Shown in pieces: positions 49,486-62,176 of a DNA stretch of 64,000 nt. The stretch's first letter is position 1, and every line of letters begins with the position of its first letter. Source of the DNA: a bacterium (lineage in GTDB: Bacteria; Electryoneota; Electryoneia; Electryoneales; Electryoneaceae); NCBI GenBank assembly GCA_963669175.1, contig OY769902.1:2272001-2336000 (forward strand), given 5' to 3'. Under the pieces are notes generated by a model. It was given only the letters and a program-made list of their open reading frames with translations. It did no database searches and was not told where the DNA came from. The position numbers were made by a program, and so were the translations under genes.

Positions 49486-50985
49486 ATGATACGTCAACGG
49501 TTCCCATTGATTCTAATTTGCCTGACCTTCCTTGTGCTATTCCCTTTTGTGACCCATTCCCAAATTCATATTTCCGGCGAGATTAGCGGTACGCTGGTTG
49601 ATACTACCTACATTGTTGATGATGATATCACGCTCGCAGGTGCACTTCATATAGAACCCGGTGCACGATTGCTATTCGAACAAGGTACACACTTCACTGC
49701 GAACCGCCTGTTAGTTGCAGATGGTGAACCCGGGGACTCCATCTATTTTGAGTTGAATGATGGGGCCAACGCATGGCATGGGATTGATATTACTTACAAT
49801 TCGTCCTATGGCCATTACTTGAACTACTGTGTAATCACCGGGAGTATCAGTAGTGGTATAGACGCGTCAGAGGGAGCGGCGCTTCATTTGTTCAACAGCA
49901 GAATATCAGGAAACACATCCGAAGAAGTTGGCGGCGGAGTACGATTCAGATGTTTGAGTGGCGCAATCGATAGCTGCCTGTTTGTTGATAATGAAAACTA
50001 TGCGCTGTCAGCCAATTATTTTCTTGACAGTACTATGTTCAGCCACCTGGAGATAGTTCGTAACGACGGTGGCATACATATAGATTTTGAAGGAGGAAAC
50101 GTACACTTTTCTAATTGTAAGATCTATGAGAATTACCGTGATGGGGACGGTGCCGGTGTTTGTACCTATACAAGAACGGCATTTTATAACAGCCTATTTT
50201 ACAATAATATTTGCAGCAATAGGGGGGGGGCAATATACTCCTTCTACGTTATTGAATTGTATAATTGCACTATTGTCAACAATCATGCCGATTACAGAGG
50301 CAGTGCCATTTTTGGTTATGCCAGCAATAACCCGACCATTGTGAATACAATTGTAGCACTTAACAGTGGGAATAATGCGATAGATTTTTTGAGTCGTGAA
50401 TTGGGTTTGAACTATGATATTCACAATTCTTGCTTTTACAGTCCGGATTCCAGTGTCATACACCCTCATCCATACGACAGCCTGTTTGCCGTAATTGACC
50501 GGACAAATGCCAATGGGGATTCCTGCGACATTTTTAACAATATCTACCTCGATCCTGGATTTGTCAATGATACGCTTGATTATCATCTTTCCATGTTCTC
50601 TCCTTGCATTGATGCCGGAAGTCCCGATTCTCCTCTTGATCCTGACAACACTATCTCCGATATCGGTGTTTACTATTATGACCAGACCTTTGTCAGCGAG
50701 CACAGGGATTATAGTTGTCCAACCAATTTCGAAGTCTCACCAGCCTATCCCAACCCGTTCAACGCGACAACTTCAGTCTTGGTAGAAACCCCATTCCGTA
50801 GTCCGCTGACGATTCGTGTCTTTGATATCCTTGGACGATTAGTGTATTCCAGGAATAACCATACGGTATCAGCAGGACAACACTTGTATCAGATCAGTGG
50901 CGCCGCGTGGGGAGCGGGAACTTATTTTGTTCAAATCGAGGCTGGTGCTGAGAAAGAAGTTCAAAAGATTATCCTGTTAAAATAA
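49486..50985 (+). CDS. Secreted parallel beta-helix protein with T9SS-like CTD
   Basis: Signal peptide, SQIHISGEISG, NANGDSCD, SPCIDAG, AYPNPFN..KIILLK. Confidence 0.87.
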   Translation: MIRQRFPLILICLTFLVLFPFVTHSQIHISGEISGTLVDTTYIVDDDITLAGALHIEPGARLLFEQGTHFTANRLLVADGEPGDSIYFELNDGANAWHGIDITYNSSYGHYLNYCVITGSISSGIDASEGAALHLFNSRISGNTSEEVGGGVRFRCLSGAIDSCLFVDNENYALSANYFLDSTMFSHLEIVRNDGGIHIDFEGGNVHFSNCKIYENYRDGDGAGVCTYTRTAFYNSLFYNNICSNRGGAIYSFYVIELYNCTIVNNHADYRGSAIFGYASNNPTIVNTIVALNSGNNAIDFLSRELGLNYDIHNSCFYSPDSSVIHPHPYDSLFAVIDRTNANGDSCDIFNNIYLDPGFVNDTLDYHLSMFSPCIDAGSPDSPLDPDNTISDIGVYYYDQTFVSEHRDYSCPTNFEVSPAYPNPFNATTSVLVETPFRSPLTIRVFDILGRLVYSRNNHTVSAGQHLYQISGAAWGAGTYFVQIEAGAEKEVQKIILLK

Positions 50986-51084
50986 GGAAATACTTCCGGT
51001 AGGTTTGGCGATTTGCTTCTTGTTTGCGACCTTTGTATTCGGGTTGGCAATCGGAAGCGATCGCGTAACATGCTGGAGGACAAG

Positions 51085-51918
51085 ATGTTACATACTTCAA
51101 CGAGCCTGTATGACCGGTGTATGGAGAAGACGCCGGAGCAGGTGTTTGTGAACTCGCTTCGTCGCGAGTTTGAGCTTTCACCGGCTGCGAGTACGGGGAT
51201 ATTGGAGCTTGCCAAGCGTTGTTTGTTCGGTACGATGCCGTCAACGCTTGGCAAGCTTCGTTTTTTATGTGCGTCCAAGAAAGCTCGTCACGGTCGTCCC
51301 TTACGCGAACAAGACCTGATTCGTGTCGAACTGACACTGGATGACGGTGTTGAGGACTTGGATGTTCTGCGCGAACTGGGCGCTTCATCGCTTCGTCAGC
51401 AACGGATTCTTCGGCTAACCGAAGAGACGTACCAGCAGGGTGGGTTGCTGACACAGGAGGATCTGAGTCGTCTGCTGCACGTTTCAGATCGGACCATCCG
51501 CAAGGATATTGCGTTGCTGCTTGCTGACGGGAATACGGTGCATACGCGTGGCTACGACCATGACATTGGGCGTGGGTTATCGCACAAGGCACGGATCGTT
51601 GATTTGTACCTGGGTGGCCGGACCTATGATGAGATCATCCGTCTGACACGTCACAGCGCGTTTGCGATCAAGCGCTATGTGAGTACGTTTGGACGCTTGT
51701 TGCTTCTGCTTAGCCATGACATTACCGAGCTGACCGACCTGAGCCGTCTGCTTCAACAGAGCGAACGGTTGACGGGTGAGTACCTGGATCTGTTTGCGAA
51801 ATACAAACAGGGTGATCACTGGCCGACAAGCTATGTCGAACTTCTGGAGCAGTTGCAAGCACAGTATCCCTCAAAAAAAAGAGCGGGACAAGGTGGCGGA
51901 GGCGTCCATGAAAACTGA
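51085..51918 (+). CDS. DUF1670-like protein (element ORF1)
   Basis: RL.EE.YQQGGLLTQEDL, TRG...DIG.G.SHK, HS..AI.RY; GGAGG RBS before ATG 51085. Family assignment from memory of the motif. Confidence 0.8.
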   Translation: MLHTSTSLYDRCMEKTPEQVFVNSLRREFELSPAASTGILELAKRCLFGTMPSTLGKLRFLCASKKARHGRPLREQDLIRVELTLDDGVEDLDVLRELGASSLRQQRILRLTEETYQQGGLLTQEDLSRLLHVSDRTIRKDIALLLADGNTVHTRGYDHDIGRGLSHKARIVDLYLGGRTYDEIIRLTRHSAFAIKRYVSTFGRLLLLLSHDITELTDLSRLLQQSERLTGEYLDLFAKYKQGDHWPTSYVELLEQLQAQYPSKKRAGQGGGGVHEN

Positions 51919-52738
51919 GGTACGGAACCGTTATGAATCCCTGCCGAAGCGGAACTTTCGCACTGCGATCATCCGGTTGTTGGAAGAGCAGTACAAGATT
52001 CTTGGCAGCCACAAGGTCTTGGCCATGGTGGCGGATGACATCATGCAACTGCACCGTGAGTTCTATCCGGATATCGAGCAACGCAGCGGTGGCAGTATTG
52101 TGTGGCGTACGACAGGTGCACAGTGCCACAAGCCCAGCTATGGGACACGGGTAGAAGACTATGAGGTGAAGACCGTCATTCTTCCGCTTGTCACTGAAGA
52201 AGATGTGGTTGATCGTATTCGTCGCCACTATGGAAAAGACGGTGCGGGCAAACAGCGCGACAGGGATATTGCAGTGCTGGCGCGGTTGGTGAAAAGCGCG
52301 TACGAACAAGGCGGGTTATTAAGCGGCGCGGAATTGAGTGTGTTGTTGAACCGGTCGCTGACGACCATTGGCAAGTACATCCAACAGTATCATGAAACGC
52401 ATGATGACATCCTGCCGACGAAAGGAATCATGTTGGACCAGGGAAGCCGTCCCACACACAAGGCCGCAATCATTGACCTGTACGAACAGGGCTATCCGGA
52501 ACCGGATATCGCTCGCTTGACCACGCATACCCTTGAAGCGGTGGGTCGTTACTTGCGATCTTACAAAAACATCAAGTTCCTGATGGTCAAAGAACTTAAT
52601 CTGATGGAAATTGTGCGTACTACCGGACTCGGACGTAGTACAGTGGTCCAATATCAGAAACTGGTGATGCAGTATCATCCTGACCTTAAACCTAAAGATA
52701 AACAAAAAGATACAACGAAAAAGGACAAGAAAAAGTAA
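51908..52738 (+). CDS. DUF1670-like protein (element ORF2)
   Basis: RL..SAYEQGGLLS..EL, PTKG...DQG...THK, HT..AV.RY; GGAGG RBS; overlaps ORF1 end. Confidence 0.8.
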   Translation: MKTEVRNRYESLPKRNFRTAIIRLLEEQYKILGSHKVLAMVADDIMQLHREFYPDIEQRSGGSIVWRTTGAQCHKPSYGTRVEDYEVKTVILPLVTEEDVVDRIRRHYGKDGAGKQRDRDIAVLARLVKSAYEQGGLLSGAELSVLLNRSLTTIGKYIQQYHETHDDILPTKGIMLDQGSRPTHKAAIIDLYEQGYPEPDIARLTTHTLEAVGRYLRSYKNIKFLMVKELNLMEIVRTTGLGRSTVVQYQKLVMQYHPDLKPKDKQKDTTKKDKKK

Positions 52739-52982
52739 CCACTATCAACTGAAAACCTACCGGAAATATTTCCTAATAGTAAATAGCGGTAAATATCCTT
52801 ACTCTACCCAAACTGTCCTTCCTCATCATGTTCGTCCGGTCAATCCTCGGTGCCTGGTTCGACATAGCACGTTGTTGTGATTTGCCATCTTCATGCAAAA
52901 CATGCAATTCATTCTGGACCGACCCCCTGTTTTTCCTTACATTGCAACTCTTTGGGAGCCGGAAACCAACCAGGGAGGAGTC

Positions 52983-61432: not shown

Positions 61433-61745
61433 AGAATTTCACGCAAAGACGCGAAGACGCAAAGAAAGAAAAAGAAGTAAAAGAAGGTAAAGAAGGTAAA
61501 AAAGGTAGCCCGGTCATGCCTGGCCGGGGAAAATAGCAGAATGAATATAAGAAGTCAGTGATAAAGAAAAGAAATGAAAAAATGAAAAAGAAAAAAGGTA
61601 TATAAGAAAAAATAGTCAAGAATACCTGTTAAGTAATTCTAAAGAAAATAAAAGCATTTGAATCATCCTTGATATCCTTATCATCCTTTGTATCCTGTAT
61701 ATTCAACAGAGAATCTTTATCCTTGCCATCCTTTTATTCTGGTTC

Positions 61746-62068
61746 CTCACAAGAATTTGTGCATCCGGGCAAAGTTGTGGCAGGTCTTGACGCGACATTC
61801 CGTTTTCGGCTTTCGCAATGTATTTCTGTATACACGATGATACTGAAACCACCTCTCGTCCTGTTATTGTCGCGTTGTGACCTGCCACCGGTATCAGCAC
61901 TCTCGCTGTCGTCAGGTCACAACGTGATGCCTGATGATGATCTATCATGCTAAATAGCAGTTGTGAAGTCGGACAGGTGTCTGAAATTGCGGAGAAGAAC
62001 AAGAAAAAGGCATCACGTCAAGACCTGACGAAACGTGCTCGTCGATAATATGCACAAATTCTTGTGAG
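61746..62068. repeat. MITE/REPIN-like element: perfect 19-bp outer IR enclosing four family B motifs
   Basis: CTCACAAGAATTTGTGCAT and ATGCACAAATTCTTGTGAG; inner motifs at 61777, 61869, 61910 and 62010. Confidence 0.75.
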
Positions 62069-62176
62069 CAGCTTTTATCCTATTATCCTGTGAGTTTAGT
62101 TTGGTGAGAAAAAAACACCTCCCGAATGGAGGTGTGGTGTACAATGTTGACGGACCGTAGTCCGCAAGAGGGCGCA

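Follow-up and report, generated by a model that had tools for sequence, protein, structure and literature searches.

The window analysed here is a stretch of 64,000 nucleotides from a bacterium of the family Electryoneaceae (contig OY769902.1, positions 2,272,001 to 2,336,000 of the forward strand); its genome, G000, is one closed contig of 5.45 Mb, and L-numbers stand for the single loci or copies that were compared. The window contains a mobile element of 1,799 bp, located directly behind a gene whose product ends in a type IX secretion C-terminal domain (CTD), and the only genes of this element are two overlapping open reading frames (ORFs) that code for paralogous proteins of the family DUF1670 (PF07900 in Pfam). 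The limits of the element rest on its copies in the genome, on a public contig in which these are collapsed, on a rule that the junctions follow and on a paralogous empty site. The features of the locus are the following:

49486-50985, + strand: target gene, coding for a 499-aa protein that ends ...QKIILLK* (Por_Secre_tail, E 8.1e-12, 45.7 bits)
50980-50981: AA, left copy of the 2-bp duplication, equal to bases 1 and 2 of the target's last Lys codon; the collapsed repeat contig begins at 50980
50982-52780, + strand: mobile element, 1,799 bp
50982-50985, + strand: left tip A-TAA, which completes a Lys or Arg codon (AA+A, AG+A, CG+A) and brings a new TAA stop
50986-51006, + strand: left inverted repeat, a 12-bp near-palindrome GGAAATACTTCC followed by GGTAGGTTT
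51085-51918, + strand: ORF1, an OrfA-type DUF1670 protein of 277 aa (Pfam E 2e-45; the N-terminus matches homologs)
51873-51880, + strand: A8 run, a candidate slippage site at the 3' end of ORF1, encoding KK/KKK within the ORF1/ORF2 frame overlap
51908-52738, + strand: ORF2, an OrfB-type DUF1670 protein of 276 aa (Pfam E 9e-49)
52753-52773, - strand: right inverted repeat, AAACCTACC followed by a perfect 12-bp palindrome GGAAATATTTCC
52774-52780, + strand: 7-nt tail TAATAGT, borne by the element outside the right repeat and the same in 7/7 copies
52781-52786, + strand: AAA TAG, the original last codon and stop of the target gene, of which 52781-52782 is the right copy of the duplication

Ends and copies of the element

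A preliminary description of this DNA, made from the sequence alone, had proposed a 1,790-bp unit with terminal inverted repeats matching at 21 of 22 positions and an AATA directly repeated outside both ends. The repeats stood up to analysis: they agree at 21/22 nt, the left arm reading GGAAATACTTCCGGTAGGTTT at 50986-51006 with a near-perfect reverse complement at 52753-52773, and the 21-nt degenerate pattern GGAAATAYTTCCGGTAGGTTT has just these 2 sites in the 64-kb window, one on each strand, while 0.00 were expected from 100 shuffles. The outer 12 nt of either arm are palindromic, perfectly so at the right and with one mismatch at the left. Both the inverted repeats and the left-end motif TTCCGGTAGG are conserved across lineages. 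The proposed limits had to be corrected to 50982-52780, and the AATA, although present at 50981-50984 and 52775-52778, is not a target-site duplication, since all seven copies in G000 share AAATA at the left and AATAGTAA at the right, where the flank of each reads AATAGTAA(A/G)T(A/G). The true duplication is the 2-bp AA.

The 1,799-bp unit is mobile and recently active. G000 carries 7 full copies that are ~100% identical, one copy of 68% identity and one left-end fragment of 154 nt (78%). The seven show 0-5 differences per 1,790 bp (at least 99.7% identity) at 6 variable positions, five of them synonymous and one a Gly-to-Cys change in one copy. Each copy lies behind a different gene, and up to the very junction the DNA of these upstream genes shows no relationship. 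Thus the copies with identical ends and different flanks that the preliminary description had anticipated do exist, with a duplication of 2 bp in place of the 4 bp it expected. In public contigs of the same organism the element forms a separate contig of 1,803 nt, the limits of which (50980-52782) fit a 1,799-bp element with AA on each side exactly; its depth was 156.8 and 219.6 against 23-28 for the flanks, about 6-8 fold higher. A second, unrelated closed genome holds 6 copies of ~100% identity and one of 93%.

Inverted repeats, a site-dependent duplication and near-identical copies at unrelated places give the element the generic anatomy of an insertion sequence; the recognisable transposase protein that usually goes with it was not found. 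Its two ORFs are under purifying selection and G000 has no master element, which sets it apart from miniature inverted-repeat transposable elements (MITEs) and other non-autonomous elements. A genome-wide search of the one-contig G000 for the same ends returned no other element, so that a known DDE insertion sequence acting in trans, which had been named as a possible owner of these ends, was not encountered.

Junctions were compared in 36 loci, 8 from G000 and 28 from other genomes, fetched by an ORF2 alignment; a scan of the genome contigs with a single protein as query gave no match. Both ends were found in 34/36 loci (L035 is cut by the contig and L054 is internally deleted), and L057, a partial match of 45%, was excluded. 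The left junction reads N1N2-A-TAA-GGAA in 34/34 complete copies. At the right junction of these copies the order is TTCC, a 7-nt tail and a 6-mer. Copies of one lineage share the same tail whatever their site, and the tails differ from lineage to lineage (TAATAGT, TAAACGT, TAATACA, TAATAGA, TAACAGT). The 6-mer differs between near-identical copies and consists of a Lys or Arg codon followed by a stop in 33/34; those seen are AAATAG, AAGTAG, AAGTGA, AAATAA, AAGTAA, AAATGA, AGATAA, CGATAG and AGGTAG. N1N2 matches the first two bases of the right 6-mer in 33/34 copies, the duplication being AA, AG or CG. Arg-codon sites (L046, L052, L055, L056) are used by lineages that sit mostly at Lys codons, which indicates that N1N2 comes from the target. 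The simplest reading of these junctions is a 2-bp duplication within the last sense codon.

Longer duplications were considered and ruled out. The 12-bp palindrome does not qualify, because left and right palindromes differ identically in all copies of a genome; nor does a 5-6-bp duplication (AAATA/AARTRR), because the left is always ATAA and the right is variable. The idea that the conserved bases at the right end belonged to a pre-existing target was also rejected, a search of G000 for AAATAGTAARTRR-type sites giving 1 unrelated match only. AATAGTAART has 20 occurrences in G000, 7 of them at element copies, and as the genome holds no stock of unoccupied AAATAGTAART sites, the 7-nt tail belongs to the element.

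These limits also change the empty site. The one suggested earlier, ATCCTGTTAAAATAGTAAATAGCGG, proved wrong, the inferred empty site being ...ATCCTGTTAAAATAGCGGTAAATATCC, and from the 2-bp boundaries the empty allele at this locus would be expected to read ...CTGTTAAAATAGCGG.... A paralogous empty site is available in a tandem array of at least six paralogous CTD genes (G000 1.195-1.216 Mb, 74-83% DNA identity), in which two genes are occupied (L005, L007) and at least three are not. Without the element and one AA, L007 reads ...AAGATGGTATTGTTGAA|ATAGATGTCAGAC (that is, ...TTGAA|ATAGATGTCAG); the unoccupied paralog that ends at G000 1212512 reads ...AAGATGATCATGCTGAAATAGATGTTAGTT (...CTGAAATAGATGTTAG), with the same AAATAG+ATGT. 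It follows that in the occupied L007 the 7-nt tail is succeeded by the gene's own AAA-TAG and the bases beyond. An orthologous empty site was not found in the nearest genome of the same genus, which shares only the downstream gene (71%) and gave no bridging match; in a relative's run (X1, ~93-95% identity) contigs cover both flanks and end before the junction.

Insertion within the last codon of type IX secretion CTD genes

The most striking property of the element, absent from the preliminary description, is its codon-precise aiming at the ends of type IX secretion CTD genes. Insertion falls between the second and the third base of the last Lys or Arg codon of these genes, with the 2-bp duplication. 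An ORF that ends in a hydrophobic strand and Lys or Arg (KIILLK, RMVLLK, KMVFLR) precedes 31/32 assessable copies. Moreover, the C-termini encoded upstream matched Por_Secre_tail (PF18962) at E<=0.01 in 18/18 cases tested, 8 from G000 and 10 from other genomes, and in 17 of these the score was above the 27-bit cut-off. In the window, the third base of the target gene's last codon and its TAA stop are supplied by the element. Since the left tip gives AA+A, AG+A or CG+A and then a stop, the product of the target gene does not change and the site stays a valid target. The target class is therefore one of hundreds of paralogous gene ends per genome, where the split codon is rebuilt and the insertion is silent for the host protein; G000 has 335 CTD-ending ORFs, with K as the last residue in 257 and R in 63, and at least 150 by the Pfam model.

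In their base frequencies the insertion sites resemble CTD ends as a whole, and nothing is conserved behind the stop codon. The target motif, AAR NTN NTN YTN NTN AA|R TRR, is the coding sequence of the last strand of the CTD. A 24-bp profile made from 23 usable foreign sites was run on both strands of G000, and CTD ends accounted for 25/25, 49/50 and 94/100 of the top hits; a plain DNA read-out of ~21-24 bp would thus suffice for specificity. We infer that this motif is read by the DUF1670 proteins themselves.

Short pieces of the left end were found at sites that carry no element and behind full copies. Two CTD genes of G000 that are free of the element have, after a terminal AAATAA, 14 nt of the left end, which match at 14/14 positions (800638-800651) and 12/14 positions (2946992-2947005). 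In three loci from three other genomes (L034, L037, L050), 6-14 nt of a left end stand directly after the restored Lys-stop of a full copy, and the remnant in L034 (GGCCATATGACCTC) bears the palindrome of a distant DUF1670 lineage. GG stands behind 9/53 unoccupied CTD ends of the form xxATAA, compared with 21/274 for other endings. These remnants look like relics of earlier occupants. A search for the circle-junction pattern in all loci and in G000 gave only two right junctions followed by left-end remnants of 6-8 nt.

Some further repeats were seen in the same surroundings. The 154-nt left-end fragment of G000 (2071034-2071187, - strand) is preceded by ...AACAAGTAA, a Lys-stop, and has no ORFs behind it. 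Purine-rich GGTAAAGAA-like runs lie behind the stop of many CTD genes (window ~60260; G000 706040, 1263047, 2089993, 2090139 and 2093841), and both the 800638 remnant and the 2071-kb fragment have a related AAAGTT-rich run next to them. In the genome of L038 (G079), positions 333437-333462 are a lone exact match of 26 nt to the right end and tail of that genome's own element, with no adjoining element. A repeat of ~335 nt (for example window 61737-62071, G000 2333737-2334071) recurs with 80-98% identity at more than 90 other places in G000, one copy starting 22 nt after element copy L006; it has the look of a small repeat of high copy number, perhaps MITE-like.

The two DUF1670 proteins and their family

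Two overlapping paralogous ORFs of 277 and 276 aa had been described at this locus and were recovered as such, with an overlap of 11 nt and 33% identity over 132 aa (E 2e-13) between the proteins. The suspected DUF1670 membership was confirmed with the Pfam hidden Markov model, which gives 155.3 bits for ORF1 and 166.2 bits for ORF2 against a gathering score of 25 bits. Compared with the 68% copy, both genes are under purifying selection, the ratio of nonsynonymous to synonymous substitution rates (dN/dS) being 0.21 for ORF1 and 0.09 for ORF2; against a third lineage the synonymous sites are saturated. Other lineages retain only ORF1 and ORF2, antisense ORFs in the element are not conserved, and no conserved third gene stands beside the pair in any locus read. 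The non-coding space amounts to ~100 nt 5' of ORF1 and 42 nt 3' of ORF2; an Rfam search gave two chance-level rows and nothing above chance, and a scan for promoters and terminators did not rise above shuffled sequence. Just 5' of the ORF1 start, ~50-82 nt inside the left end, many lineages (L031, L034, L036, L038-L046, L053, L059) carry the inner repeat motif once more in inverted orientation (CTTACCGGAG or CTAACCGGAA), which may be an operator for autoregulation.

That no DDE, HUH, DEDD or serine-recombinase motif can be recognised had been stated from the letters alone, and Pfam, NCBIfam and the predicted folds bear this out for the corresponding domains and also for tyrosine recombinases. 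Transposase and recombinase families at E<=1 in Pfam and NCBIfam were limited to rows in the helix-turn-helix (HTH) region: HTH_7, the resolvase HTH, at E 0.0044, which is below its cut-off and comes with no serine or tyrosine catalytic domain, and an NCBIfam row for IS21 at E 0.052 over 42 residues of HTH. No NCBIfam row was stronger than E 8.5e-4. The weak Pfam matches of ORF1 and ORF2 are HTH_11, HTH_28, HTH_23, HTH_29 and HTH_7. As for the individual classes, Pfam gave no match to Y1_Tnp or Rep, and the element, with inverted repeats and a 2-bp duplication, is unlike those of HUH enzymes; for DDE enzymes there is no RNase-H-like domain in Pfam or NCBIfam and no Foldseek match at E<=0.001; for DEDD enzymes (IS110/IS1111) there is neither a domain match nor a long non-coding guide region. 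One source's name for the homolog P0107 gave a GIY-YIG lead, which was dropped as Pfam has no GIY-YIG match at E<=10, both N-terminal domains included. Some sources label these HTH proteins regulators ('biotin operon repressor', 'CsgD family').

Structure prediction with AlphaFold 2 (AF2) and diverse alignments gave a predicted local distance difference test score (pLDDT) of 89.9 and a predicted template modelling score (pTM) of 0.70 for ORF2, and 81.4 and 0.44 for ORF1. Both models consist of helix, helix, beta-hairpin and helix, forming a small alpha/beta domain, followed by three HTH units. At E<=0.001 Foldseek returned 0 matches in PDB for both models and 0 in BFVD for ORF2; in the ESM Atlas only DUF1670 clusters were retrieved, the N-terminal 115 residues having no match. 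Weak fold matches are to sigma factors, TFIIB-like cores, MntR/DtxR, SelB winged helices and the paired domain, and the N-terminal part of ORF1 weakly matches HU/IHF-like folds (6lmh, probability 0.75; 1ihf, probability 0.38). A profile search of PDB sequences matched only 8vd6 (E 9.6e-8), a de novo designed repeat protein according to PMC12339374, from which no more follows than a tandem HTH-like repeat in the C-terminal half. In a set of 82 ORF2-type sequences with identities as low as 23%, H184 and Y215 never vary and G62, L92, R126, A131, L138, P170, G173, D177, G179, K185, H207 and Y249 are nearly invariant; the pattern T-R-G-x3-D-x-G-x4-H-K...H-x6-R-Y...Y is found in ORF1-type proteins as well.

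Several observations bear on whether the two proteins work together. The earlier proposal of a heteromeric pair found weak support in complex prediction, where ORF1-ORF2 scored 0.39 and the best control 0.00, at a mark reached by 58/80 solved complexes and 2/110 mismatched pairs, scores of up to 0.60 at this mark coming from only 7 of those 80 solved complexes and from both mismatches; at least 51% of contacts were common to the runs, with a partner pLDDT of at least 67. The catalytic fold that a transposase would call for did not appear in the Foldseek searches with the two single models. Natural fusions are known in the family, which comprises 923 clusters at 50% identity (E<=1e-3). Ten long members were scanned: four (~930-950 aa) have three DUF1670 stretches, three (532-546 aa) have two with the ORF1-type first, and three of ~430 aa have one behind an uncharacterised N-terminal part, none of the ten carrying a catalytic Pfam domain. 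Taking into consideration the ORF1-type/ORF2-type fusions and the weak complex prediction, we infer that ORF1 and ORF2 act as a heteromer; slippage at a conserved A-run might in addition give a fused OrfAB. This run, A8 or A9 in length, follows TAYCC(N3) near the ORF1 end in 24/25 loci of the clade (the 25th, L009, is partial), and the ORF2 frame is open from inside the A-run to its ATG. In L037 and in L035, which has the same sequence as L059, there is one A fewer than in relatives and ORF1 and ORF2 share one frame, a homopolymer sequencing error being possible at both loci.

The family is widespread and its distribution is patchy. ORF2 has at least 1,628 homologs at E<=1e-3 among 3,604 candidates scored; of the 120 homologs listed, most are on contigs of ~1-5 kb, the usual outcome when repeats break an assembly. 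DUF1670 was found in 2/41 genomes of relatives and in 3/79 genomes of the phylum, the window's own included. Relatives of the element occur in many metagenome-assembled genomes (MAGs) of the FCB group, and mobility of the two-gene unit extends over several bacterial phyla. Chloroflexota, Planctomycetota and methanogens also have DUF1670, to judge from automatic cluster labels and from a control search in which M. acetivorans was positive.

A distant lineage, ~28% identical to ORF2, was followed through 36 metagenome loci. In 12/12 loci examined an ORF of 273-312 aa lies upstream of, and adjoins, the ORF2-type gene, and the seven such ORFs that were aligned are all ORF1-type. Five loci aligned at their ends (L065, L068, L069, L071, L072) have sharp boundaries in different contexts, and each end has a 12-bp palindrome, GGYCATATGACC at the left and GGTCATATGGCA at the right. 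One end begins ACTATTAGG, the reverse complement of the right end of the window's element, and the other reads AAATAG outward. The distant element thus has the same end design, mirrored relative to the genes, and the expectation that DUF1670 pairs elsewhere would be flanked by inverted repeats is borne out across lineages. AARTWN-like bases were seen at the flanks of the distant element. No gene end abuts these copies, so that CTD targeting seems specific to the FCB-group clade.

Mechanism of movement and known systems

We propose that the element is an autonomous, site-specific insertion sequence of an undescribed family, with the two paralogous DUF1670 proteins as its only genes, and we give this reading a probability of about 0.6; 'undescribed' is judged by absence from the NCBIfam transposase models. 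Binding to the end palindromes and reading of the target motif would fall to the DUF1670 pair, which would also effect integration, either by catalysing breakage and joining through a chemistry outside the known transposase folds or by recruiting a ubiquitous host enzyme. The position directly behind an intact gene probably offers a harmless site together with read-through transcription. More tentatively, at somewhat short of even odds, DUF1670 may constitute a new class of transposase or recombinase, made of HTH modules and a small alpha/beta domain and working as a paralog heteromer or a fused chain, in which the residues R...D-x-G-x4-H-K...H-x6-R-Y...Y would cut with a 2-bp stagger. That the two-gene unit extends over several phyla, and probably over more than one domain, argues for self-sufficiency.

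A number of observations weigh against this proposal. Neither protein has a catalytic domain by Pfam, NCBIfam or Foldseek, the best fold matches are all binders of DNA or RNA, and the all-HTH fold argues against self-sufficiency. The conserved R126, D177, H184, K185, H207, Y215 and Y249 of ORF2 fall in or between the HTH repeats, and two of the tyrosines occupy equivalent positions of repeated units, so that they may be structural or DNA-contacting and not catalytic. Two loci depart from the insertion rule: L052 has CG at the left and AG at the right, its left flank being only 5 nt at a contig edge, and in L051 the site is not a CTD gene end and the right 6-mer is not a codon plus stop. In the public contigs of the same organism no empty allele, circle junction or new insertion was seen, the single contig joint listed (50762 to 50980, side 22) being the flank of another copy. 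As regards a fused product, the shift from ORF1 to ORF2 is +1 in some loci and -1 in others, so that a single ribosomal frameshift rule does not fit, and the A-run may simply encode a Lys patch; a fusion, if made, would fit transcriptional slippage better than a fixed ribosomal frameshift.

In a rival reading the DUF1670 pair would serve in recognition and architecture only, for ends, target, bending and autoregulation, and the DNA would be broken and joined by an enzyme encoded elsewhere, be it a recombinase, nuclease or topoisomerase of the host or the product of an unrelated mobile element acting in trans. Both AF2 models are HTH arrays with a small N-terminal alpha/beta domain, Foldseek matches only DNA or RNA binders, among them the weak IHF/HU-like match of the ORF1 N-terminal part, no catalytic family was found, and IHF is itself a paralog heterodimer. 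We hold this division of labour to be possible without thinking it probable, because the closed G000 contains no second element with these ends and the loci read have no conserved third gene beside the pair; with a two-gene unit mobile in several phyla and a family reaching archaea, the partner enzyme would have to be nearly universal. The junctions by themselves fit staggered-cut transposition and conservative recombination of a circle alike. In the latter, an excised circle (...TAATAGT-AA-ATAAGG...) would recombine with NTN-AA-RTRR through a 2-bp crossover, and the duplication would be a shared core as in serine-recombinase systems. Such a course would explain why the flanking repeat is exactly 2 bp, why the element's ATAA mimics the target's RTRR and why site choice is strict, and L052 (CG/AG) could then be a mismatched core. 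It seems to us rather unlikely, as neither a serine- nor a tyrosine-recombinase domain was found, no circle junction was seen in any locus or in G000, and the use of AG and CG cores by mostly-AA lineages is disfavoured under strict core identity.

There is also the view that nothing has moved, and that a conserved regulatory operon of two transcription factors behind secreted-protein genes was multiplied by gene duplication; the naming of such HTH proteins as regulators by some sources and the constant adjacency to CTD genes would agree with it. This is extremely improbable and is already contradicted by seven copies of at least 99.7% identity whose upstream genes are unrelated up to the junction, by sharp identical ends with inverted repeats and a 2-bp duplication, by paralogs of a tandem array that occur with and without the element, by the depth signature of a collapsed repeat and by the patchy distribution among relatives.

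A literature search by name found no publication on DUF1670 or PF07900 in the library covered, and by title and beginning of abstract none of the papers listed described an element aimed at the ends of CTD genes. If a widespread family (923 clusters) moves with two HTH proteins, either DNA is broken by a new chemistry or a host enzyme is borrowed in a new way, and DUF1670 would thereby gain a function. As its address the element uses the DNA for the last strand of a secretion signal, of which a genome has hundreds, and silent insertion could explain persistence; the element suggests a compact, sequence-addressed integration system. If DUF1670 is indeed a transposase, it would be a natural gene-sparing, multi-site 'safe harbour' integrase, with an FCB-group clade reading the code of a sorting signal as its address and with catalytic residues conserved from bacteria to archaea. 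In addition, element copies break MAG assemblies at secreted-protein genes, which is relevant for MAG annotation.

Among known systems, IS630/Tc1-mariner elements share short inverted repeats, a 2-bp duplication and DNA recognition by tandem HTH units; HTH_23, HTH_28 and HTH_29 are HTH types usual in the N-termini of their transposases, and a chain of the Mos1 transpososome stood at rank 50 of the fold search. Unlike them, the element has no DDE or RNase-H-like domain, duplicates AA, AG or CG and not TA, recognises a coding motif of 21-24 bp and not a dinucleotide, and has two paralogs where they have one protein. IS3 and IS1 produce OrfA, OrfB and a fused OrfAB by means of an A-rich slippery site, the downstream frame carrying the DDE domain. 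Two overlapping ORFs with an A-run in the overlap, and the natural fusions of the DUF1670 family, recall this arrangement; however, both frames of the element encode HTH proteins and the shift is +1 or -1 depending on the locus.

With respect to the target, the closest likeness is to Tn7, which inserts at attTn7 behind glmS: here too a conserved sequence at or behind a gene end is used and the gene is left intact. IS1111/IS110 elements and the IS1202 subgroup at Xer sites are likewise said to be safe-site elements that insert at or behind a gene end. In contrast to all of these, the element addresses 335 gene ends in G000 and not one locus, cuts within the last codon and rebuilds it, and has neither TnsABCD-type, DEDD or DDE machinery nor a long non-coding guide region. 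IHF and HU, architectural DNA-bending proteins used by transposons and phages, resemble the pair in that two paralogous subunits are involved and in the weak match to the N-terminal helix-helix-hairpin-helix of ORF1. The matches have E values of 0.18-0.83 and TM of 0.29-0.30 on the target, and DUF1670 differs in adding three HTH units and in being encoded by the element. To our knowledge, every catalogued insertion-sequence family rests on a DDE, DEDD, HUH, serine or tyrosine fold. The element is an insertion sequence by its anatomy, and by its gene content it stands outside the DDE, DEDD, HUH, serine and tyrosine families.

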